A stretch of DNA of 64,000 nt, from positions 2,040 through 66,039 of the forward strand of contig JAKOMP010000016.1 of the NCBI GenBank assembly GCA_022241785.1. Direction: 5' to 3'. The notes beneath the pieces were generated by a model. That model saw only the letters and a program-made list of their open reading frames with translations, did not search any database and was not told where the DNA came from. The DNA comes from Cyanocohniella sp. LLY. Its GTDB lineage: Bacteria > Cyanobacteriota > Cyanobacteriia > Cyanobacteriales > Nostocaceae. A program made the translations under genes and the position numbers. Below are positions 4,074 through 19,754 of this stretch, piece after piece (position 1 is the first letter of the stretch; every line of letters starts with the position of its first letter).

Positions 4074-5144
4074 ATGTCCAGACATCAATCACCCTTCCAA
4101 AAACCAGAGGAAGAAGTACAATCCGCTTCTCCCGATTCTCTTACCATGGTTCGTAAACAAGAAGTTGTGCAACTCCTCAAGAAAATTAACGATTCCATCC
4201 TCAAAAATGACATCGTTAGTCTGGGAATGGTGCGAAATTTGCGAATAGTTGATGACTATATATATTTGCGTTTATATATCGGTTCCCATCAACATCAATT
4301 AGAAGCCGAGATTCAAACTGTATTATCATCTCTGACTTGGAGCAAAAAAACTTACATTCAACTCTGTACCATTCCTCAAGTAAGAACCACTCTAGCCGTT
4401 TCCAGTGGTAAGGGTGGTGTGGGTAAATCTACCACGGCGGTTAATTTAGCAGCTGCTTTGCAATTAGCCGGGGCAAAAGTCGGTCTGTTGGATGCTGATG
4501 TTTACGGCCCCAATGTCCCGCAAATGCTGGGGCTGGGTAAATCTGAGGTGAAAGTTATCGATACTCCCAATGGCCAAAGGTTTGTACCATTAGAAGCTTA
4601 CGGGATTAAAGTGATGTCTGTGGGACTGTTAGCAGAAGCAGACCATCCTTTAGCTTGGCGTGGCCCGGTTTTACACAAAATTATTATCCAATTTATCCAT
4701 GAAGTAGAGTGGGGAGAATTGGATTATTTATTAATTGACCTTCCTCCTGGTACTGGTGATGCTCAAATTACGATTGTGCAAGAAAGCCCTATTTGTGGGG
4801 TAATCTTGGTCACAACTCCCCAAAATGTCGCTGTTTCGGATGTCCGCCGCAGTATTTATATGTTTCGTCAAGTTGGGGTTCCTGTGGTCGGTATTATCGA
4901 AAATATGAGCTATTTTCTAGGAAGTGGTGGCGAAAAAATTCCGATTTTTGGCAGTGGTGGAGGTCAAAGGTTGGTAGAAGAACTCAAAGCACCGCTTTTA
5001 GGACAGATTCCTATTGATCCCCTCATCTGTAATGGTGGGGATGTTGGAGAACCGCTAACACTTGCTGACCCTGATTCCACAGCTAGTCAAGTATTTGTAC
5101 GAATTGCTGAGGCGTTAAATGCTACTTTTGCTGGTTCTGTTTGA
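4074..5144 (+). CDS. Mrp/NBP35 (ApbC) family Fe-S cluster carrier ATPase
   Basis: N-terminal DUF59-like region, deviant Walker A (SGKGGVGKST) and a conserved ParA-like core. Confidence 0.85.
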   Translation: MSRHQSPFQKPEEEVQSASPDSLTMVRKQEVVQLLKKINDSILKNDIVSLGMVRNLRIVDDYIYLRLYIGSHQHQLEAEIQTVLSSLTWSKKTYIQLCTIPQVRTTLAVSSGKGGVGKSTTAVNLAAALQLAGAKVGLLDADVYGPNVPQMLGLGKSEVKVIDTPNGQRFVPLEAYGIKVMSVGLLAEADHPLAWRGPVLHKIIIQFIHEVEWGELDYLLIDLPPGTGDAQITIVQESPICGVILVTTPQNVAVSDVRRSIYMFRQVGVPVVGIIENMSYFLGSGGEKIPIFGSGGGQRLVEELKAPLLGQIPIDPLICNGGDVGEPLTLADPDSTASQVFVRIAEALNATFAGSV

Positions 5145-5286: not shown

Positions 5287-5312
5287 TACGGTAATTCGAC
5301 TGATTTATAGTA
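5287..5312. promoter_or_regulatory. 26-bp TAC-N20-GTA palindromic box (putative sulfur-regulon operator)
   Basis: TACGGTAATTCGACTGATTTATAGTA. It ends 30 nt before the ATG of the SDR gene. Its 3' part contains a -10-like TATAGT. Confidence 0.6.
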
Positions 5313-7720: not shown

Positions 7721-7746
7721 TACGGTAAATTGCTAGATTTAGTGTA
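7721..7746. promoter_or_regulatory. 26-bp TAC-N20-GTA palindromic box (putative sulfur-regulon operator)
   Basis: TACGGTAAATTGCTAGATTTAGTGTA. It ends 32 nt before the ATG of the SsuA-like gene. Confidence 0.6.
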
Positions 7747-7778: not shown

Positions 7779-8837
7779 ATGTTGACCAAGTATTTACCTA
7801 AACGATTGATGAAGATTGTCAGTAGCTTTCTTCAGAATTATGAATTAACCAGAACGGCTGTATTTGCTTTATTCTTTGCCGTCGGATTAAGCTTGACTCT
7901 TGTCATATCTGCGTGTTCTCCCAATAACACAAGCAACTCCGCCGCCACACAAGCAACAAGTCAAGGTGTAGTGATTCGTATCGGCTATCAAAAAGCGGCA
8001 ACTATTCTGAATGCGCTGAAAAACAGAGGTGGTTTAGCACAAACTTTAGAAGCGACTGGTGCGAGAGTCACATGGGCAGAATTTCCCGCAGGCCCACCTA
8101 TGCTAGAAGCTATGAACGCAGGTAGTATTGACTTTGGTTACACAGGTGAATCACCACCAATATTTGCTCAAGTTGCAGGTACTCCCTTGCTTTATGTGGC
8201 GTATGATCCTTGGAGTCCGAAAGCTGAAGCAATTATCGTGCGTAAAGATTCACCAATTCAAACAGTTGCTGACCTCAAGGGGAAAAGAGTAGCCTTTGCT
8301 AGAGGGTCAAATACTAACTATCTTGTGGTCAAAGCTGTAGAAGCTGCCGGATTAAACTATAGTGACATTCAACCAACACATCTCACACCAGCAGATGCCC
8401 GTGCAGCATTTGAAGGCGGTAATGTTGATGCTTGGGCAATTTGGGACCCTTATTTAGCAGCAGTAGAGCATGATACAGAAGTAAGGATTTTAACAGATGC
8501 CACAAATTTAGCACCGAATCGGGGTTACTATCTTGCTCGTCAAGACTTTGTTAAGTCTCACCCAGATTTGTTGAAAACCATTTTAGATGAAGTCGGCAAA
8601 GTAGACGAATGGGCAACAAATAATCCAGCAGAAGTTGCCAAGTTTCTAGAACCAGAATTAGGTATTCCCGCAGCAGCCTTAGAGATTGGGGAAAAACGGC
8701 GGAAGTATGGCGTTTTACCGCTAACAGATGAAATCATCACTCAGCAACAAGAGATTGCTGATACTTTTTACAAAATCAAGCTAGTTCCTAAGCAAATCCA
8801 AGTCAAAGACATCGTTTGGAACGGTAATAAATCCTAG
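7779..8837 (+). CDS. ssuA: Aliphatic sulfonate ABC transporter substrate-binding protein (SsuA family), lipoprotein
   Basis: Lipobox (VISAC). Conserved WAEFPAGPPMLEAMNAGSIDFGYTGESPPIFAQ block, shared with the paralogues at 39277, 50324 and 52455. Confidence 0.8.
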   Translation: MLTKYLPKRLMKIVSSFLQNYELTRTAVFALFFAVGLSLTLVISACSPNNTSNSAATQATSQGVVIRIGYQKAATILNALKNRGGLAQTLEATGARVTWAEFPAGPPMLEAMNAGSIDFGYTGESPPIFAQVAGTPLLYVAYDPWSPKAEAIIVRKDSPIQTVADLKGKRVAFARGSNTNYLVVKAVEAAGLNYSDIQPTHLTPADARAAFEGGNVDAWAIWDPYLAAVEHDTEVRILTDATNLAPNRGYYLARQDFVKSHPDLLKTILDEVGKVDEWATNNPAEVAKFLEPELGIPAAALEIGEKRRKYGVLPLTDEIITQQQEIADTFYKIKLVPKQIQVKDIVWNGNKS

Positions 8838-8862: not shown

Positions 8863-8922
8863 ACTGAGCGACTTGTACTGAGCGACTTGTACTGAGCGAA
8901 GTCGAAGTAAGTCGAAGTAACT
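8863..8922. repeat. Composite tandem repeat
   Basis: ACTGAGCGACTTGT x2.6, followed by AGTCGAAGTA x2. Confidence 0.85.
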
Positions 8923-8947
8923 CCCCACTCCCCATTTGTAAAAGCTT

Positions 8948-10657
8948 ATGAATATCAACACTCAACAAATAAAAACTGATGTACTTGTCATTGGTGGCGG
9001 TACGGCTGGGACAATGGCAGGTATCAAAGCCAAACAAGCAAATCCAGACGCAGAGGTACTGATTTTAGAAAAGGCTAACATACGACGGAGTGGTGCGATC
9101 GCAATGGGGATGGATGGGGTAAACACCGCCGTCATTCCTGGACACTCGACACCAGAACAATACGTCCGCGAAATCACCCTAGCTAACGATGGTATTGTCA
9201 ACCAAAAAGCCGTATATCAAACAGGCAAATTAGGTTATGAAGTCATCCAAGAACTAGAAAGCTGGGGTGTGAAATTTCAAAAAGATGCCCAAGGCAACTA
9301 TGACTTAAAACAAGTGCATCGTGTAGGTAAATATGTCTTACCCATGCCAGAAGGTAAAGACCTGAAAACCATTCTCACCAGGCAAGTCAAACGCCACAAA
9401 GTCAAAGTCACAAATCGCGTCATGGCAACCCGTGTGTTAGTCAAAGCTGGACGTGCGATTGGTGCTGTGGGATTTGATGTTAGAAACGGCGATTATATAA
9501 TCATTCAAGCCAAAGCCGTCATCTTATGCACAGGTGCTTGTGGCAGATTAGGATTACCAGCTTCCGGCTATCTCTACGGCACTTACGAAAATCCCACCAA
9601 TGCCGGGGACGGCTATTCAATGGCTTATCATGCAGGTGCAGAACTCAGCAATATTGAATGTTTTCAAGTTAATCCTTTAATCAAAGATTATAACGGCCCT
9701 GCCTGTGCTTATGTCGCTGGGCCATTTGGCGCACATACAGCCAACGCCGAAGGAAATCGCTTCATTAGTTGCGACTATTGGAGTGGTCAAATGATGTTGG
9801 AAATTTGGAAAGAATTAAACTCTGGGAAAGGGCCAGTCCAACTAAAAATGACCCACCTTGATGAAGATACAATCGCCGAAATTGAATCCATACTTTGGGC
9901 GAATGAACGACCAAGTAGAGAACGCTTTCATCAAGGCAGAAATGAAGATTACCGCACCCACGGCGTAGAGATGCACATCTCAGAAATCGGCTTATGTAGC
10001 GGTCATAGTGCCTCTGGCGTATGGGTAAACGAAAACGCCCAAACAACAGTCCCAGGTTTATATGCAGCTGGAGACATGGCCAGCGTTCCCCATAATTATA
10101 TGATTGGAGCATTTGTTTTTGGTCGCATAGCTGGGACTCATGCCATTGAATATATTGAAAATTTAGATTTTACCGAACCAGATACAGATTTTTTAGAAGC
10201 TGAAAAAATCAGAATTTATGCCCCATTAACTCGTCCCAATGGTGTACCTCATACTCAAGTTGAATATAAATTAAGACGCTTAGTTAATGATTATCTGCAA
10301 CCACCAAAATCAGGTAATAAAATTGAGATTGGTTTGAAGAATTTTGTCCAATATCAACAAACCTTAGATTTAATGGGTGCGCGTGACCCCCATGAATTGA
10401 TGCGTTCTCTAGAAGTGCATTTTATTCGAGACTGTGCAGAAATGGCAGCCAGAGCATCATTATATCGTCAAGAAACACGTTGGGGACTTTATCATTACCG
10501 TTTAGATTATCCCGAAAAGAATGATGATGAGTGGTTTTGTCACGTCAACTTAAAAAAAAATGAATCAGGACAAATGGTATTATTTAAACGTCCTGTAGAT
10601 CCTTACATTGTAGAAGTAGATGCAGTCAAAGAATTTTATGATGTAACTGTAAGGTAA
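8948..10657 (+). CDS. AprA-like FAD flavoprotein (adenylylsulfate reductase alpha / fumarate reductase flavoprotein superfamily)
   Basis: 569 aa. N-terminal GGGTAG FAD fold, and GLYAAGD near the C-terminal third. The overall layout resembles AprA. A cognate AprB-like ferredoxin lies at 14079. Confidence 0.65.
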   Translation: MNINTQQIKTDVLVIGGGTAGTMAGIKAKQANPDAEVLILEKANIRRSGAIAMGMDGVNTAVIPGHSTPEQYVREITLANDGIVNQKAVYQTGKLGYEVIQELESWGVKFQKDAQGNYDLKQVHRVGKYVLPMPEGKDLKTILTRQVKRHKVKVTNRVMATRVLVKAGRAIGAVGFDVRNGDYIIIQAKAVILCTGACGRLGLPASGYLYGTYENPTNAGDGYSMAYHAGAELSNIECFQVNPLIKDYNGPACAYVAGPFGAHTANAEGNRFISCDYWSGQMMLEIWKELNSGKGPVQLKMTHLDEDTIAEIESILWANERPSRERFHQGRNEDYRTHGVEMHISEIGLCSGHSASGVWVNENAQTTVPGLYAAGDMASVPHNYMIGAFVFGRIAGTHAIEYIENLDFTEPDTDFLEAEKIRIYAPLTRPNGVPHTQVEYKLRRLVNDYLQPPKSGNKIEIGLKNFVQYQQTLDLMGARDPHELMRSLEVHFIRDCAEMAARASLYRQETRWGLYHYRLDYPEKNDDEWFCHVNLKKNESGQMVLFKRPVDPYIVEVDAVKEFYDVTVR

Positions 10658-10661
10658 AATC

Positions 10662-11444
10662 ATGCCTATTTATAACTCAATTGGTCAGCAATATTCAAGA
10701 ACTCGTGTTCCTGATATTCGCATTGTCAATCAACTAATTGATTTACTCAATTTACCAAAAGATAGCATTATCGCTGATATTGGTGCTGGTACTGGTGGTT
10801 ACAGCCTAGCTCTAGCTAACCAAGGATTTTTTGTTAATGCTATTGAACCTTCTGTAGTGATGCAAAAACAAGCAGGAAATCATCCGCAAGTTAAGTGGTT
10901 CCCTGACTATGCAGAAAAATTACCTCTACCAGATAAGTCTGTTGATGCTGTTGTCAGTATCCTAGCAATTCATCACTTTAATAATCTCGAAAAAGCTTTT
11001 CAAGAAATGCAACGAGTTATTAGAGATGGAGTAATAGTTTTGCTAAGTTTTGATATTAGGTTTGCTCAGAAGATATGGCTGTATGATTACTTTCCGTTTT
11101 TGTGGGAAGATGCTTTACGATTTTTGCCTCTTCAGGAACAGATTGATTTAATTCAGACTCATACTAAAAGGCGCGTTGAAGCCATACCCCTTTTATTACC
11201 ATACGATTTATCTGATTTATTCGCAGCAGCAGCCTGGAGAAGACCAGAGTTATATCTTCAACCAGAAGTACGAGCCGGAATATCATCTTTTGCTTTAGCA
11301 AATCAAGATTTAATAGAGCAAGGATTACAGTTATTAACAGCAGATTTAAATAGTGGTGAATGGATAAAAAAGTATGGTGATATTCGCAATTTAACAGAGA
11401 TTGATTTAGGCTATCGTTTTATCCGTGCAACGCTGGTTAACTAA
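10662..11444 (+). CDS. Class I SAM-dependent methyltransferase
   Basis: DIGAGTGGYS motif I. It starts 4 nt after the upstream stop. Confidence 0.75.
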   Translation: MPIYNSIGQQYSRTRVPDIRIVNQLIDLLNLPKDSIIADIGAGTGGYSLALANQGFFVNAIEPSVVMQKQAGNHPQVKWFPDYAEKLPLPDKSVDAVVSILAIHHFNNLEKAFQEMQRVIRDGVIVLLSFDIRFAQKIWLYDYFPFLWEDALRFLPLQEQIDLIQTHTKRRVEAIPLLLPYDLSDLFAAAAWRRPELYLQPEVRAGISSFALANQDLIEQGLQLLTADLNSGEWIKKYGDIRNLTEIDLGYRFIRATLVN

Positions 11445-11463
11445 ATAATTGTAATTTAAAATC

Positions 11464-11934
11464 ATGACAAATCAAATTACTGTAGGTGAGACAATTAAAA
11501 TTAGACAAGCTGAGATGAAAGATGTAGAGAGAATTGTTAGTCTTTGCGAACAACTTGAATATTCTGTAACAAATAAACAAATAGAGCAAAGACTTGCTAA
11601 AATTTTAAATAGTGATGCTCATATTGTGTATGTTGCAACTTTAGTAAATGAAGATGTGATTGGTTGGGCGCACGCTCATATTTGTGACTCAATAGTTATT
11701 TCGACTCCAGCGATTCTTTTGGGATTAGTTGTAGATCAAGATTATCGTTATAATGGAATTGGACGTTATTTAATGCAGCAAATCGAGCAGTGGGCTTATC
11801 TAGTTGGATGTGAGAGTGTTCTGTTACGTTCTAATATTAAACGTCAAGAGGCTCACTCGTTTTATGAAAAAATTGGTTATACCAATATCAAACAGTCGGT
11901 GACATTTTCTAAAAAATTGCAACCTCAAGAGTAA
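11464..11934 (+). CDS. GNAT family N-acetyltransferase
   Basis: RYNGIGRYLMQ acetyl-CoA-binding motif. It is a paralogue of 13072-13542. Confidence 0.8.
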   Translation: MTNQITVGETIKIRQAEMKDVERIVSLCEQLEYSVTNKQIEQRLAKILNSDAHIVYVATLVNEDVIGWAHAHICDSIVISTPAILLGLVVDQDYRYNGIGRYLMQQIEQWAYLVGCESVLLRSNIKRQEAHSFYEKIGYTNIKQSVTFSKKLQPQE

Positions 11935-11946
11935 AGAATTTAAAAA

Positions 11947-12356
11947 ATGATTACTGGAGTTAATCACATTACTTTATCTGTCAGAAATTTAGAAGAATCT
12001 ATCAATTTTTATACCAATGTCCTAGATTTCGCTTACTGGCAAAATGGACTAAAGGTGCTTATCTTTCGGCTGGTGACATTTGGTTGGCATTAATTCTAGA
12101 CAAGAAAGTTAGAGAAAATCCTCTACCTGAATATACCCATATTGGTCTGACTGTTTCTGTGAAAAATTTTCCTATTCTTAGCCAACGCATTCAACAATCA
12201 GGAGCAAAAATTTGGCAACAAAATCAAAGTGAAGGTGCTTCTTTGTATTTCCTTGATCCAAATAATCATAAACTGGAAATTCATGCTTCTGATTTAAATA
12301 CCAGAATCAAAACTGCTAAAGCATCTCCGTGGGAAGGGTTAGAATTTTTCGTTTAA
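11947..12356 (+). pseudogene. FosA-like (VOC family, glutathione transferase type) gene with a 1-nt frameshift
   Basis: The frame-1 ORF from ATG 11947 reads MITGVNHITLSVRNLEESINFYTNVLDF and then goes out of frame. The homologous continuation (R)LLAKWTKGAYLSAGDIWLALILDKK... is in the frame of the 12084 ORF. The shift is at about 12026-12031. Confidence 0.7.
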
Positions 12357-12425
12357 AGCTCGGATAAAAAAAAATTGTAATTAGAGTATCTAAAAATTAA
12401 TTAGCAATTCAATTATTTTTCTAAA

Positions 12426-12950
12426 ATGCTTGAGTTAATTAACCCAACTTGTGATTTACATTCTGAGTTTATTGATATGGTGGCGGAATATCAAGAACGT
12501 AGTGAATCACGACTATTTGATCAGAATAATTTGACGTTAATTCAAAAAAATTTTTCAGATCATATTCAATACTTAGAAAATAACTCAAAAGGTATGGATT
12601 TAAAACCTGGTTTCGTAACTGCAACAACTTTTTGGTTAGTAGTACAGAAGAAACTAATTCTGGGCGAAAGCCAATTACGCCATTGGTTAGTACCTAATTT
12701 AGAACATCGTGGAGGACATATTGGATATATGATTCGTCCTCTGCAAAGAAGTAAAGGATATGGTACACAAATACTGGCTATGACTTTAGAAAAAGCTAGA
12801 AACATGGGTTTAAGTCGCGTTCTTTTAACTTGCGACCAAGATAATCTTGCTTCCGCCCGCATAATTCAGAAAAATCAAGGTAAATTAGCAAGTGAGGGAT
12901 TTTTGGAAAATTCAGACACAGTTATTTTCCGCTATTGGATTGATTTATAA
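12426..12950 (+). CDS. GNAT family N-acetyltransferase
   Basis: 174 aa with an RSKGYGTQILAM motif. Confidence 0.7.
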   Translation: MLELINPTCDLHSEFIDMVAEYQERSESRLFDQNNLTLIQKNFSDHIQYLENNSKGMDLKPGFVTATTFWLVVQKKLILGESQLRHWLVPNLEHRGGHIGYMIRPLQRSKGYGTQILAMTLEKARNMGLSRVLLTCDQDNLASARIIQKNQGKLASEGFLENSDTVIFRYWIDL

Positions 12951-13071
12951 AAACTTAATTTGAGACTAATAAAAATACTATGATTAATTTAGATGCAAAA
13001 TACATAAATCGTTTATTTTAAATTTAATTAATATTATAATAGATATATTTATCAAAATTTAATTTTTAACT

Positions 13072-13542
13072 ATGATCAAAGAATTTACTATAATTGACCA
13101 AATCACAATTAGACAAGCTGAAATTAAAGATGTAGAGCGGATTACTAATCTTTCCAAGCAATTGAAATATTTTGTATCCCAGGAACAAGTAGAACAGAGA
13201 CTAGCTATAATTCAAAATAATGATGCTCATGTTGTGTATGTGGCAACTTTAGATGTAGATAATGAATATGTTGTTGGTTGGGTACACGCTTATATTTGTG
13301 ACTCAATAGTGATTCCCGCTCCAGCTATTATTTTAGGATTAGTTGTAGATAAAAGTTATCGTCGTCATGGTATAGGGAGTTATTTAATGCAGCAAATTGA
13401 GCAGTGGGCTTTTTTAGTAGGATGTGACAGTGTTATGTTAAATTCAAATATTAAACGTAAAAAAAAAAACTTATTTTATAAAAAACTTGGTTACTTTAAC
13501 ATAAAACAGTCGTTAAATTTTCAAAAAAAATTAATTGACTAA
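13072..13542 (+). CDS. GNAT family N-acetyltransferase (paralogue of 11464-11934)
   Basis: Same length (156 aa). By eye it is about two-thirds identical to the 11464 product. Confidence 0.8.
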   Translation: MIKEFTIIDQITIRQAEIKDVERITNLSKQLKYFVSQEQVEQRLAIIQNNDAHVVYVATLDVDNEYVVGWVHAYICDSIVIPAPAIILGLVVDKSYRRHGIGSYLMQQIEQWAFLVGCDSVMLNSNIKRKKKNLFYKKLGYFNIKQSLNFQKKLID

Positions 13543-13545
13543 AAT

Positions 13546-14055
13546 ATGCAGTTAGTAGAAAATTTTTCCACACCCCGATTGTTAGCTGAACGCTTACGTT
13601 TTCAACATTTGCATGAACTTTGCGAGATGCACCAAAATACACAAGTGATGGCGACCTTGGGTGGCGTACGTTCTGATGAAAATACACGATTATTTATTTT
13701 CAATAATTTGCATCATTGGCAGCGTTATGGTTTTGGTTTATGGGTGTTTCGAGATAAAACTAGTCATAAATTTGTTGGTCGTGCTGGGCTTCGCAATAGT
13801 GATGTAGAAGGTATAAATAAAGTAGAATTAGCTTATGCTATTATGTCTGATTTTTGGGGACAAGGATTAGCTACAGAAATGGGTGAAGCAATTTTGAAAA
13901 TTGGTTTTGAATTGCTGAATTTACAAGAAATAGTTTGCTTTGCTCTCACCACAAATCAAGCTTCACAAAGAGTTATGGAAAAGTTGAGATTTAAATATGA
14001 GCATGAGATTATTCATGCTAATTTACCCCATTTATTGTACCGCTTAACGGCTTAA
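13546..14055 (+). CDS. GNAT family N-acetyltransferase (RimJ/RimL-like)
   Basis: 169 aa. It has a WGQGLATE motif and a typical RimL-like layout. Confidence 0.75.
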   Translation: MQLVENFSTPRLLAERLRFQHLHELCEMHQNTQVMATLGGVRSDENTRLFIFNNLHHWQRYGFGLWVFRDKTSHKFVGRAGLRNSDVEGINKVELAYAIMSDFWGQGLATEMGEAILKIGFELLNLQEIVCFALTTNQASQRVMEKLRFKYEHEIIHANLPHLLYRLTA

Positions 14056-14078
14056 TTATAAAATCAAGGAGTAGTTTT

Positions 14079-14306
14079 ATGGCTTTAATCAATCAAAGAA
14101 TAGATGTACCTGTCATCGTTGATGAATCTAAATGCTTAGAAAAATGTACAGCCTGTATTGAAGTTTGTCCATTAGATGTGTTGGCAAAAAATCCAGAGAC
14201 AGGAAAAGCATATATGAAATATGATGAATGCTGGTTTTGTCTACCTTGTGAAAAGGAATGTCCTACCAATGCAATTACAGTACAAATTCCCTTTTTGTTG
14301 CGGTAA
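14079..14306 (+). CDS. 4Fe-4S dicluster ferredoxin, AprB-N-terminal-like
   Basis: 75 aa. The cysteine patterns are CLEKCTACIEVCP and CWFCLPCEKECP. Confidence 0.7.
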   Translation: MALINQRIDVPVIVDESKCLEKCTACIEVCPLDVLAKNPETGKAYMKYDECWFCLPCEKECPTNAITVQIPFLLR

Positions 14307-14360
14307 TTGTATCAGATCATAAACTTACTTATAACAAACCAATTGATATCAGGATTTTAA

Positions 14361-15338
14361 ATGTCTACAAATAGTACTAATTCCGAATTGAATCAATGGC
14401 TAGAAATGCTGAGATCGCCTGATGTAAATGACCGTCTAGTAGCTGTCAAAACCTTACAACATTTAGGTGATGAAGAAACAATTGATGCTTTAATTATGGC
14501 GTTGCAAGATGAAAATACCAGTGTCCAGAAAATAGCTATATCTGCTCTTTGGGAAATTGCCGATCCTGTGGCTATCCCAGCTTTAATTGAACGCTTAAAT
14601 TCAGCAGATGCAGAGATTCGATCTGAAGCCGCATCAGCCTTAAACGAATTAGTTACACAAGATGATTTGTTACTTTTATTAGATAAGTTACAAATTAATC
14701 ATATCAATACACAATTAAATATTTTAGTATTGCTACGTAAGATACACGACATTCAATCTTTACCCTATATATTACCATTTTTACAATCAAACAATCCTGA
14801 TTTAAGAGAAGCTGCTATTACCACGTTGCGATATCTCAATCAACTAGAAAAATGTCCCCAAGCTTTAGAGTTAATATTTGATGAATCAGCAGTTGTACGT
14901 CGTGCTGCTGCTTTAACTTTAGGAAATTTACAAGATACAGAAATAATTATAATACTTTCCCAAGCACTGACAAACGATAGTGACTGGCAAGTTCGCCGGA
15001 ATGCAGCGAAATCTCTGGCTATTCCTGAAAATCATCAAGCAACTTCCGCATTAGTAATAGCCTTAGATGATGAACATTGGCAAGTGCGAAAAGCAGCAGC
15101 ACAAGCTTTGCAAAAAATCCCAGATATTCAAGTTATGCCGAAATTAATTCAAGCATTAACAGATGAATATGCAGATGTCCGCAAAGAAGCTGCGATCGCA
15201 CTTGGAAATTTAGCTCACCCTGACGTTATTAACCCCTTACAACAAGCCTTAGATGATCCTGATAAAGAAGTGTCCATCCAAGCACAACGGGCAATCCAGA
15301 AAATTCAAACAGCTAAAATAGGTTCAAGAAAGCAGTAA
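14361..15338 (+). CDS. HEAT-repeat (PBS-lyase HEAT-like) protein
   Basis: Repeated D..VR..AA.ALG units run throughout the 325 aa. Confidence 0.8.
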   Translation: MSTNSTNSELNQWLEMLRSPDVNDRLVAVKTLQHLGDEETIDALIMALQDENTSVQKIAISALWEIADPVAIPALIERLNSADAEIRSEAASALNELVTQDDLLLLLDKLQINHINTQLNILVLLRKIHDIQSLPYILPFLQSNNPDLREAAITTLRYLNQLEKCPQALELIFDESAVVRRAAALTLGNLQDTEIIIILSQALTNDSDWQVRRNAAKSLAIPENHQATSALVIALDDEHWQVRKAAAQALQKIPDIQVMPKLIQALTDEYADVRKEAAIALGNLAHPDVINPLQQALDDPDKEVSIQAQRAIQKIQTAKIGSRKQ

Positions 15339-19254: not shown

Positions 19255-19307
19255 GTTAGTCTAAATAGCAACTTACCATAAATTATTCTGAGGAAGCAAG
19301 CTATTCC

Positions 19308-19754
19308 ATGAGTCAAAAAGCAAAATTTTCTCGATTTATCCTGGCTTTTGTGGCTGGATTTATTGCTGTGTTGGTATTTCACCAAGGCTTGCTGGCATTG
19401 CTTCATGCAATTAACTTTGCACCCCGCGCACCCTATCAAACCACGCCAACACCACCCTTTGGTATACCACAATTTATTTCGGCGGCTTTCTGGGGAGGAA
19501 TTTGGGGTTTAGTTTGGGCTACTCTGACATTACGTTGGCAAGTAAATAGAAATTATTGGATAGCGGCGCTGCTTTTTGGTGCTGTTGCACCGACATTGGT
19601 GGCTTGGTTTGTAGTTGCACCATTGAAAGGTTTACCCATAGCTGGAGGTTGGCAAGCACCAGGGATGATTACAGCTTTATTAGTCAACGGTGCTTGGGGA
19701 TTGGGAACAGCTTTATTGTTCAGTTGGTTTGCTAGAAGACAAGTATTGCCGTGA
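19308..19754 (+). CDS. Hypothetical integral membrane protein
   Basis: 148 aa with four hydrophobic segments. I recognise no family. Confidence 0.5.
   Translation: MSQKAKFSRFILAFVAGFIAVLVFHQGLLALLHAINFAPRAPYQTTPTPPFGIPQFISAAFWGGIWGLVWATLTLRWQVNRNYWIAALLFGAVAPTLVAWFVVAPLKGLPIAGGWQAPGMITALLVNGAWGLGTALLFSWFARRQVLP

Follow-up and report, generated by a model that had tools for sequence, protein, structure and literature searches.

What work is done by a redox module that carries the database name of a fumarate reductase, resembles an adenosine 5'-phosphosulfate (APS) reductase and sits beside a gene for a sulfonate-type importer? The question is raised by a 64,000-nt stretch of DNA from the cyanobacterium Cyanocohniella sp. 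LLY (the window, whose coordinates all count from its first letter), which encodes a flavin adenine dinucleotide (FAD) flavoprotein, a small ferredoxin and a HEAT-repeat protein downstream of an ssuA gene. The flavoprotein family is annotated everywhere as 'fumarate reductase/succinate dehydrogenase flavoprotein'. By the comparisons described below, the flavoprotein is a cousin of the sulfite-forming APS and 3'-phosphoadenosine 5'-phosphosulfate (PAPS) reductases in which the nucleotide-binding residues have been lost. We propose that the module uses electrons from ferredoxin to release sulfite from a sulfo-compound that the cell has imported, a reading for which we see the chances as evenly balanced.

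Kinship of the flavoprotein and its ferredoxin

The flavoprotein was placed by profile search. It scored 1025 bits against NF006131/PRK08275 (cut-off 587; positions 3–563 of 577) and 922 bits on the N-terminal 570 of the 898 positions of NF010374/PRK13800. The next-best models were of AprA type, and both fell under their cut-offs, NF005331 with 325 bits (cut-off 557) and TIGR02061 with 194 bits (cut-off 641.75). TfrA, SdhA and NadB gave 171, 160 and 119 bits, where the Sdh, Frd and NadB cut-offs lie at 450–930. The best match among solved structures, over the full length, was the alpha subunit of MtPAPSR (8a8o_A, E 2.6e-69; the family profile gave 2.1e-80), and further down came Archaeoglobus fulgidus AprA (5e-46) and SdhA (4e-21). 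MtPAPSR, from Methanothermococcus thermolithotrophicus, is an assimilatory enzyme of dissimilatory architecture with a short beta subunit (PDB 8A8O; Jespersen & Wagner 2023, PMC10322725).

A quick maximum-likelihood tree of 75 sequences was built with IQ-TREE, with support from the Shimodaira–Hasegawa-like approximate likelihood ratio test (SH-aLRT). The cyanobacterial, metagenomic and Streptomyces flavoproteins formed one clade (SH-aLRT 99), and the addition of six more distant metagenomic relatives gave a larger one (SH-aLRT 100). This larger clade was sister (SH-aLRT 98) to a short AprA/PAPS-reductase clade of nine proteins, each of them above the NF005331 cut-off or with the motifs of that model, while the SdhA-type and AsfA-like paralogues of the host genome fell outside the flavoprotein clade. 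By hidden Markov model scores, structure matches and tree, the flavoprotein stands apart from fumarate reductase and L-aspartate oxidase; its nearest characterised relatives are the AprA-type models and structures, as the initial annotation of the window had supposed.

The family is sparsely distributed and strongly conserved. Matches that exceed the NF006131 cut-off occurred in 16 genomes of a cyanobacterial sample of 301 and in 6 genomes of an Actinomycetota sample of 301, and more than 583 stretches matching the NF006131-type family were found among one-genome-per-species records. Flavoprotein identity is 84–97% across cyanobacterial orders and about 60% between cyanobacteria and Streptomyces, and the pocket loops are invariant across the two phyla despite the 60% overall identity. 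Such high identity suggests strong selection on the activity of the flavoprotein. An AF2 monomer model of it, from an alignment of 11 rows, reached a mean predicted local distance difference test (pLDDT) value of 54 and was not used.

The ferredoxin has eight Cys residues, arranged in the motifs C19-x3-C23-x2-C26-x3-C30-P and C51-W-x-C54-x2-C57-x3-C61-P. Its alignment to AprB is confined to the ferredoxin domain at the N-terminus (3gyx_B 1–64 of 166; 1jnr_B 10–65 of 150), and it also aligns to residues 7–59 of the 104 in the MtPAPSR beta subunit (8a8o_C); against TIGR02060 (aprB) it gave E 2.2e-9 and 37 bits, under the cut-off of 136. Its early description as AprB-like is confirmed by this alignment to the AprB ferredoxin domain. 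So is the lack of the AprB C-terminal tail, since the alignment covers the ferredoxin part only: the 75 residues contain the ferredoxin segment with its Trp and nothing of the beta-sheet or tail segments of AprB. The Trp in question, Trp52 within CW(F/Y)C, occupies the position of Trp-B48, which in AprB links the proximal cluster to FAD as a relay (PMC2211403). Together with the eight Cys it is invariant in cyanobacteria, Streptomyces and a metagenomic member.

To see what has become of the active site, residues of the AprA active centre and channel were taken from PMC2211403 and mapped by HMMER alignments to 2FJA and 8A8O. The queries were the window flavoprotein and an 11-member family profile, with a bridging NF005331 protein covering the stretch that those alignments skip. 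Three positions that bind the sulfo group close to flavin N5 are kept and invariant in the family, namely Asn-A74 (N59 in the window protein), His-A398 (H353) and His-A446 (H382). Five others are replaced in a way that is itself invariant in the family: Arg-A265 by Leu244, Trp-A234 by Tyr213, Tyr-A95 by Glu75, Val-A273/Gly-A274 by Ala252/Cys253, and Arg-A317 by Glu285 or a gap. Leu-A278 is replaced by Ala257, and by G, N, S or T in some members. Arg-A265 and His-A398 are the invariant positively charged pair of the AprA active centre (PMC2211403). The arginine position of this pair holds leucine in 11 of 11 aligned family members and a residue other than Arg in six more distant relatives. In the pair Asn-A74/Trp-A234, which shapes the flavin and contacts the sulfate, the Asn is kept and the Trp is now an invariant Tyr.

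There are other changes. The Glu141–Gln145 loop has gained five residues by insertion and reads VHRVGKYVLPMPEG, and the specificity residues Lys120-Arg121-Ser122 of MtPAPSR, a PAPS signature, are Lys-Tyr-Val in the window protein. Pocket positions have gained three cysteines, C238, C253 and C350, the last of which is common to most of the wider clade; these could support thiol-assisted chemistry. Across 72 aligned flavoproteins, N59 and the G-H motif are common only to the NF006131-type clade and the Apr-type clade. In our reading, the part of the site that would hold a sulfo group at flavin N5 has been partly kept, and the part that would hold the nucleotide has been rebuilt.

The module can thus be set against the two characterised relatives. 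Like MtPAPSR, it pairs a FAD alpha subunit with a short beta subunit of ferredoxin type, contains two [4Fe-4S] clusters, has a Trp relay, keeps the equivalents of Asn-A74 and His-A398, and would have an assimilatory rather than a respiratory role. Unlike MtPAPSR, its flavoprotein lies in a separate sister clade below the NF005331 cut-off; this protein has Cys-Phe and Leu in place of the arginines of the motif FE(M)R...R(V)KD, and a different set of residues in the PAPS loop; a HEAT subunit and an ApbC partner are additional; the genes are linked to an SsuA-type importer and not to sat or APS kinase; and the hosts are aerobic. With dissimilatory AprAB (A. fulgidus, 1JNR/2FJA; Megalodesulfovibrio gigas, 3GYX) the module has in common the fold family, FAD, two [4Fe-4S] clusters, a Trp-B48-type relay and conserved Asn-A74, His-A398 and His-A446. 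It differs from AprAB in falling far short of the TIGR02061 cut-off, in lacking the AprB beta-sheet and tail segments, in not conserving Arg-A265, Arg-A317, Tyr-A95, Trp-A234 and Leu-A278, and in a gene context without Qmo, AprM, Sat or Dsr. That a dissimilatory role was unlikely, as was thought at the outset, is borne out.

Neighbours, regulon and the HEAT protein

We next consider the company that the genes keep. In the 15 cyanobacterial loci fetched, the ferredoxin and HEAT genes lie 3' of the flavoprotein gene in 13 (13 of the 14 full loci), the two exceptions being a truncated gene and a contig end. Of the 15 loci, 10 have an ssuA orthologue (52–68% identity) immediately 5' of the flavoprotein gene, and 13 have an ApbC/Mrp orthologue (63–80% identity) beside the trio, often directly 3' of the HEAT gene. 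The other, housekeeping ApbC/Mrp copy of the host genome (contig C215) is only 51% identical to the paralogue in the window, and by its linkage the latter belongs to the module as a dedicated member. In Pseudanabaena the module lies between ssuD, a gene for an SsuE-like flavin mononucleotide (FMN) reductase, ssuA and more SsuA-type ATP-binding cassette (ABC) genes (ssuABC), and in Dactylococcopsis genes for a PF03601 transporter and a TauE/SafE-family transporter come after it. Neither sat nor cysC was ever adjacent to module genes in the loci examined; importers were adjacent instead. The linkage of flavoprotein, ferredoxin, HEAT protein and ssuA, put forward in the initial annotation, is therefore conserved in cyanobacteria, and it recurs with a gene fusion in Streptomyces. 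That account missed the linked ApbC/Mrp paralogue, the kinship to MtPAPSR and the analogous AsfAB system.

A separate observation concerns the PF03601 (YeiH-type) genes. One adjoins the flavoprotein–ferredoxin genes in each of two cyanobacteria (L129:14215-16029; L029), with a TauE/SafE-family gene beside it, and another independently adjoins a distant clade member (L042:4443-5690).

The palindromic box upstream of ssuA, of the form TACGGTAA-N10-TTACCGTA, is real: with up to three mismatches it occurs 10 times in the window, against 0.19 copies expected. The copies lie at 5287, 7721, 19229, 27360, 39223, 40907, 43061, 46882, 57062 and 57152 (within 3949–57177), and the genes preceded by a copy include ssuA (the copy at 7721), ssuCB, ssuD and other sulfur genes. 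A further 23 copies were found in 224 kb of related cyanobacterial loci, mostly just 5' of ssuA or of the flavoprotein gene. Because the boxes precede sulfur genes here and the orthologous operons elsewhere, the module, on the evidence of these sites, belongs to a conserved, box-marked regulon made up mostly of sulfur-scavenging genes, and we propose that this regulon, the module included, responds to sulfur limitation. The box is missing from three loci (L129, L025 and L029), which instead carry a divergent regulator in which LysR is fused to a substrate-binding protein (SBP). In Dactylococcopsis salina this LysR::NMT1/SsuA-like fusion has 666 aa (L129:7672-9672) and is divergent from the flavoprotein gene. 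The fusion was found exactly in the loci that lack both the box and an adjacent ssuA, and no full-length copy was found in the host genome, where the best match was 30% identical over the LysR part.

Outside the cyanobacteria, the Streptomyces counts refer to 80 loci kept out of the more than 583 matching stretches, from 80 species. Here the flavoprotein and the HEAT protein are a single 925-aa polypeptide, encoded in a unit with a GntR/HutC-type regulator, a 75-aa ferredoxin, a 453-aa SsuA/TauA-like SBP, a permease and an ATPase. Every gene of this unit is present in 77–80 of the 80 species, and the compact six-gene form is found in Streptomyces venezuelae. All 6 carriers in the Actinomycetota sample likewise have long fused frames. 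On a metagenomic contig whose flavoprotein is 63% identical, two SsuA-like ABC sets surround the flavoprotein, ferredoxin and HEAT genes. In both phyla, it is the SsuA and TauA models that give the binding proteins their highest scores. Since an importer of sulfonate type accompanies the module in two bacterial phyla, sulfur is probably freed from an imported compound, by a reaction as yet undescribed. The more distant clade members always keep the flavoprotein–ferredoxin pair, without a HEAT gene or importer and with mixed neighbours that offered no hint of function.

The HEAT protein matches positions 610–896 of the fused model NF010374, that is, its C-terminal 290 or so positions. It was also the scored partner in a three-chain complex prediction. 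The model score was 0.73, with 0.00 for the best control; 58 of 80 solved complexes attain this mark, as against 2 of 110 mismatched pairs, a calibration that holds only roughly here, as our own alignments were used. Between runs, 80% or more of the contacts recurred, with a partner pLDDT of 86 or higher. The N-terminal HEAT repeats of the model contact ferredoxin residues 20–28 and 60–63, around the distal-cluster ligands C23, C26 and C61, and the repeats also contact flavoprotein residues 107–148, 270–271 and 303–307, beside the family-specific loop. From its fusion to the flavoprotein in Streptomyces and from this model, the HEAT protein is predicted to be a subunit of the complex. We infer that it would form a cap over both the cluster where electrons enter and the opening of the substrate channel; in aerobic hosts it may stand in for the missing AprB tail in shielding or docking.

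An analogous system has been described in Pseudomonas putida S-313, where asfRABC encodes a reductase-type flavoprotein, a ferredoxin, an SsuA-like SBP and a LysR regulator (Vermeij et al. 1999, as reported in PMC4267179). According to the passages on it in PMC4267179 and PMC2864759, cells need asfRABC to use arylsulfonates when sulfate is limiting, and AsfAB is an electron transport system; the former passage adds that AsfAB is turned on under sulfate limitation. The likeness to the module, as far as these passages describe AsfAB, lies in a FAD_binding_2 flavoprotein and a small di-cluster ferredoxin encoded with an SsuA-like SBP. Unlike the module, AsfAB has no HEAT partner. We defined the AsfA/AsfB family by the published marker-primer peptides LSGMEF and CFMCE, in place of an authentic AsfA sequence. 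Both peptides are absent from the window proteins, which read LSNIECF and CWFCLPCE. They are present on contig C51 of the host genome, in a 542-aa flavoprotein and a 109-aa ferredoxin among SsuA-like genes, and the window flavoprotein is 24% identical to this AsfA-like flavoprotein. Because the primer peptides are absent, the identity is low and the tree places the two apart, the window module is, as far as these sequences tell, an analogue of AsfAB and not a member, and the host carries both systems. Since the C51 pair carries the asf primer-encoded peptides, an arylsulfonate system of the asf type appears to be present in a cyanobacterium. Contig C51 as a whole has two AsfA-like flavoproteins among four SsuA-like SBP genes, one of them with the AsfB-like ferredoxin.

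Layout of the window and its accessory block

The features of the module and of the C51 system are collected in the table. All module genes are real and intact, and the reading frames of the flavoprotein, the ferredoxin, the HEAT protein and ssuA lie exactly where they had been placed. The statement that the pair lies directly downstream of ssuA holds for the flavoprotein; the ferredoxin, and with it the HEAT protein, comes 3.4 kb further on.

Features of the module, its accessory block and the AsfAB-like system of the host genome (window coordinates unless a locus is named)
Feature	Position	Strand	Basis or remark
ApbC/Mrp-like Fe-S carrier ATPase	4074..5144	+	NF008669 ApbC E 1.4e-83
Palindromic operator-like box, TACGGTAA-N10-TTACCGTA type	7721..7746	.	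33 nt 5' of ssuA start
SsuA-family substrate-binding lipoprotein, ABC importer	7779..8837	+	NF008588 307 bits (cut-off 299); TIGR01728 245 bits
FAD flavoprotein, 569 aa, alpha subunit, NF006131/PRK08275 family, AprA/PAPS-reductase-related	8948..10657	+	NF006131 1025 bits
Variable accessory block, six co-directional open reading frames	10662..14055	+	family matches, low G+C
S-adenosylmethionine (SAM) methyltransferase	10662-11444	+	accessory block
GNAT	11464-11934	+	accessory block
FosA-like (VOC family) gene, frameshifted	11947-12356	+	accessory block
GNAT	12426-12950	+	accessory block
GNAT	13072-13542	+	accessory block
GNAT	13546-14055	+	accessory block
2x[4Fe-4S] ferredoxin, 75 aa, tail-less AprB-like beta subunit	14079..14306	+	alignment to AprB N-termini and MtPAPSR beta
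HEAT-repeat (PBS-lyase type) protein, 325 aa, predicted third subunit	14361..15338	+	HEAT_2 E 1.4e-66
C51 AsfA-like flavoprotein	L155:8575-10230	-	
C51 AsfA-like flavoprotein, AsfB-like ferredoxin	L155:17504-19132, 19284-19613	+	

The intergenic gaps are small, with 4 nt between the flavoprotein stop and the methyltransferase start, and a consensus scan found no terminator-like site between the plus-strand genes; two weak ones both lie within coding sequence. Because of the short gaps and the lack of an intergenic terminator-like site, it is plausible that the stretch from ssuA to the HEAT gene is a single transcription unit. The 110-nt spacer between ssuA and the flavoprotein gene consists mostly of short tandem repeats at 8866–8925, where two copies and a partial third copy of ACTGAGCGACTTGT are followed by two copies of AGTCGAAGTA.

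The reading frames of the accessory block have a G+C content of 0.30–0.35, against about 0.43 for the flavoprotein gene. The first and third GNAT genes are diverged tandem-type duplicates (76–79% DNA identity, 11447–11918 against 13055–13532). The FosA-like gene, compared with an intact 136-aa orthologue in locus L032 (84% identity), has residues 1–27 in one frame and the rest in another. In six related cyanobacterial loci the gap between flavoprotein and ferredoxin genes is empty (41–339 nt); in seven others, as in the window, 1.4–5.6 kb of other genes are placed exactly there. Several relatives fill this slot with sulfur genes, for a TauD-like dioxygenase, a YghX-like hydrolase, MetY (O-acetylhomoserine sulfhydrylase) and MetX, and others with GNAT, methyltransferase, HAD or FosA-like genes akin to those of the window. 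A GNAT orthologue (64–80% identity) recurs in three cyanobacterial loci (L026, L030 and L032), and the accessory methyltransferase has an orthologue in L030 (73%) and remnants in L026, L032 and L038. The junction is a recurrent insertion point in one cyanobacterial family (loci L026, L028, L030–L033 and L035).

Two further readings were considered and rejected. An integron or gene-cassette origin of 10662–14055 would call for repeated attC-like sites and an integrase, and the block has neither; no attC-like or recombination-site repeats were found in it, only the GNAT duplication and short A+T-rich matches. A link of the module to GNAT or glyoxalase genes, which a single Streptomyces locus had suggested, was put down to chance in that genus, because such neighbours occur in just 4–8 of the 80 species. 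Peculiar to the window are the 3.4-kb accessory block that splits the operon, the AsfAB-like system in the same genome, and a box-controlled island dense with sulfur genes.

A proposed sulfite-releasing enzyme and its rivals

We propose that the module encodes a soluble, ferredoxin-linked flavo-iron-sulfur enzyme with an FAD-bearing alpha subunit, a beta subunit with two [4Fe-4S] clusters and a HEAT subunit, served by the dedicated ApbC/Mrp-type Fe-S carrier and sharing ancestry with AprAB and the archaeal AprAB-type PAPS reductase. Low-potential electrons would enter at the distal cluster of the ferredoxin, the predicted seat of the HEAT protein, and would pass by way of the proximal cluster and Trp52 to FAD. 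Reduced FAD would then attack the sulfo group of a compound imported by way of SsuA, and sulfite would leave for assimilation. Because the nucleotide-binding residues are replaced, the leaving group would be neither adenosine monophosphate (AMP) nor 3'-phosphoadenosine 5'-phosphate (PAP). The comparisons show the homology, the set of subunits, the conserved link to the importer, the loss of the residues that bind APS and the place of the module in the box regulon; the substrate, the direction of electron flow and sulfite as the product are all things that we infer. In the ancestral chemistry of APS reductase the bond broken is S-O and the leaving group is a good one, and sulfate esters, sulfamates and thiosulfonates would for this reason be easier substrates than C-S sulfonates. 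Cleavage of an S-O, S-N or S-S bond in such compounds (sulfate ester, sulfamate or thiosulfonate type) would thus be the chemically easiest extrapolation, with a C-S sulfonate as the alternative.

Several points weigh against this proposal. The main internal argument is the loss of Arg-A265: with an invariant Leu in its place, sulfite-adduct chemistry may have been lost, and the change of chemistry may go deeper than we propose. A C-S sulfonate is a poor target for nucleophilic attack, though the transporter is annotated 'sulfonate', and SsuA-family binding proteins are poor guides to the ligand. The Streptomyces unit has a GntR/HutC-type regulator and no other sulfur genes beside it, a context that would also fit the catabolism of a non-sulfur compound. 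A literature search found no publication on the NF006131/PRK08275 family; the initial annotation, too, had known of no characterised function for the trio. Finally, the analogous AsfAB is read as an electron-transfer helper and not as a catalyst, in the relevant passage of PMC4267179.

One of the rival explanations is the database name itself. A fumarate reductase, succinate dehydrogenase or L-aspartate oxidase is suggested by the NCBIfam product name and by the Pfam domains FAD_binding_2 and Succ_DH_flav_C, yet we regard it as scarcely credible: the corresponding models reach 100–170 bits against cut-offs of 450–930, the SdhA-type protein of the host is an outgroup in the tree, and the partner is a 75-aa AprB-like ferredoxin rather than SdhB. 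The substrate-binding motifs of FrdA and SdhA are H-P-T and P-R-D; the H-P-T and A-P-R-D of the host SdhA are absent from the flavoprotein, which has NPLIKD and a deletion there. A true APS or PAPS reductase, giving the host a second, ferredoxin-dependent route of sulfate assimilation, has in its favour that MtPAPSR is the nearest solved and characterised relative and has the alpha–beta architecture and Trp relay in common with the module. It is nonetheless very improbable. The residues that hold APS and AMP (PMC2211403) are replaced and a five-residue loop is inserted, the Lys120-Arg121-Ser122 signature has become Lys-Tyr-Val, and importers, never sat or cysC, adjoin the module in the loci examined. 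The host also has the usual enzymes elsewhere, with ATP sulfurylase (sat) on contig C143 and, in keeping with the CysH-type assimilation expected of it, a CysH-type APS reductase on contig C196. An APS kinase was not detected in the host genome (rated 100% complete; best match 26 bits), which counts against a PAPS reductase. Of the sulfonate, sulfite or APS-related step suggested initially, the APS-related part is therefore disfavoured, given the active-site substitutions and the missing kinase.

The two remaining explanations concern what is done with the electrons and with the imported compound. The module could be a helper, a reductase–ferredoxin pair that feeds SsuD, TauD or SfnB-like oxygenases without itself breaking a bond, as has been proposed for AsfAB. 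The parallel is close in that AsfAB, as the passages in PMC4267179 and PMC2864759 have it, is a flavoprotein and ferredoxin with an SsuA-like SBP, serving arylsulfonate use as an electron transport system, and in that the cyanobacterial module lies among ssuD, tauD and acyl-CoA-dehydrogenase-like genes. We consider this unlikely, since the 80 Streptomyces units have no oxygenase, the identity to the AsfA-like protein of the host is only 24%, and the kept Apr-type pocket residues and the pocket loops invariant across phyla point to a small-molecule active site. The other explanation is that no sulfur is released at all: the enzyme would act on a substrate such as an organic acid or amine, (de)hydrogenated after import through an NMT1-family transporter, and its sulfur context would be one of co-regulation. 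This fits the GntR/HutC regulator and the lack of nearby sulfur genes in Streptomyces, the TctABC or TRAP organic-acid transporters or unrelated contexts beside distant clade members, and the loss of the sulfate-contacting Arg-A265. It fits less well with binding proteins that score best on SsuA/TauA models in both phyla, with a cyanobacterial operon that has the sulfur-regulon box and interleaved tauD, metY, metX, ssuD and TauE genes, and with equivalents of Asn-A74 and His-A398 that are kept in the module clade and the Apr clade only; we rate it as rather unlikely.

In its most specific form, our proposal of sulfite release describes a hitherto undescribed, oxygen-independent 'sulfo-group reductase', in which ferredoxin electrons and the flavin-N5 chemistry of its APS-reductase ancestry would split sulfite directly from an imported compound (a sulfate ester, sulfamate, thiosulfonate or sulfonate) while the HEAT protein caps and protects the electron-entry cluster. 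We put this full version forward tentatively, as less likely than not. Soil sulfur is mostly organic, and the known bacterial routes for its release are hydrolytic sulfatases, the O2-dependent mono- and dioxygenases SsuD, TauD and MsuD, Xsc, and anaerobic glycyl-radical lyases. The present annotation as fumarate reductase/succinate dehydrogenase misleads metabolic reconstructions. If the proposal is true, cyanobacteria, streptomycetes and other aerobes would be able to turn organic sulfur into sulfite without either the sulfatase-plus-ATP activation or the O2-dependent SsuD/TauD, and a reductive, ferredoxin-driven enzyme from APS-reductase stock would be a new entry among the routes of organosulfur release.

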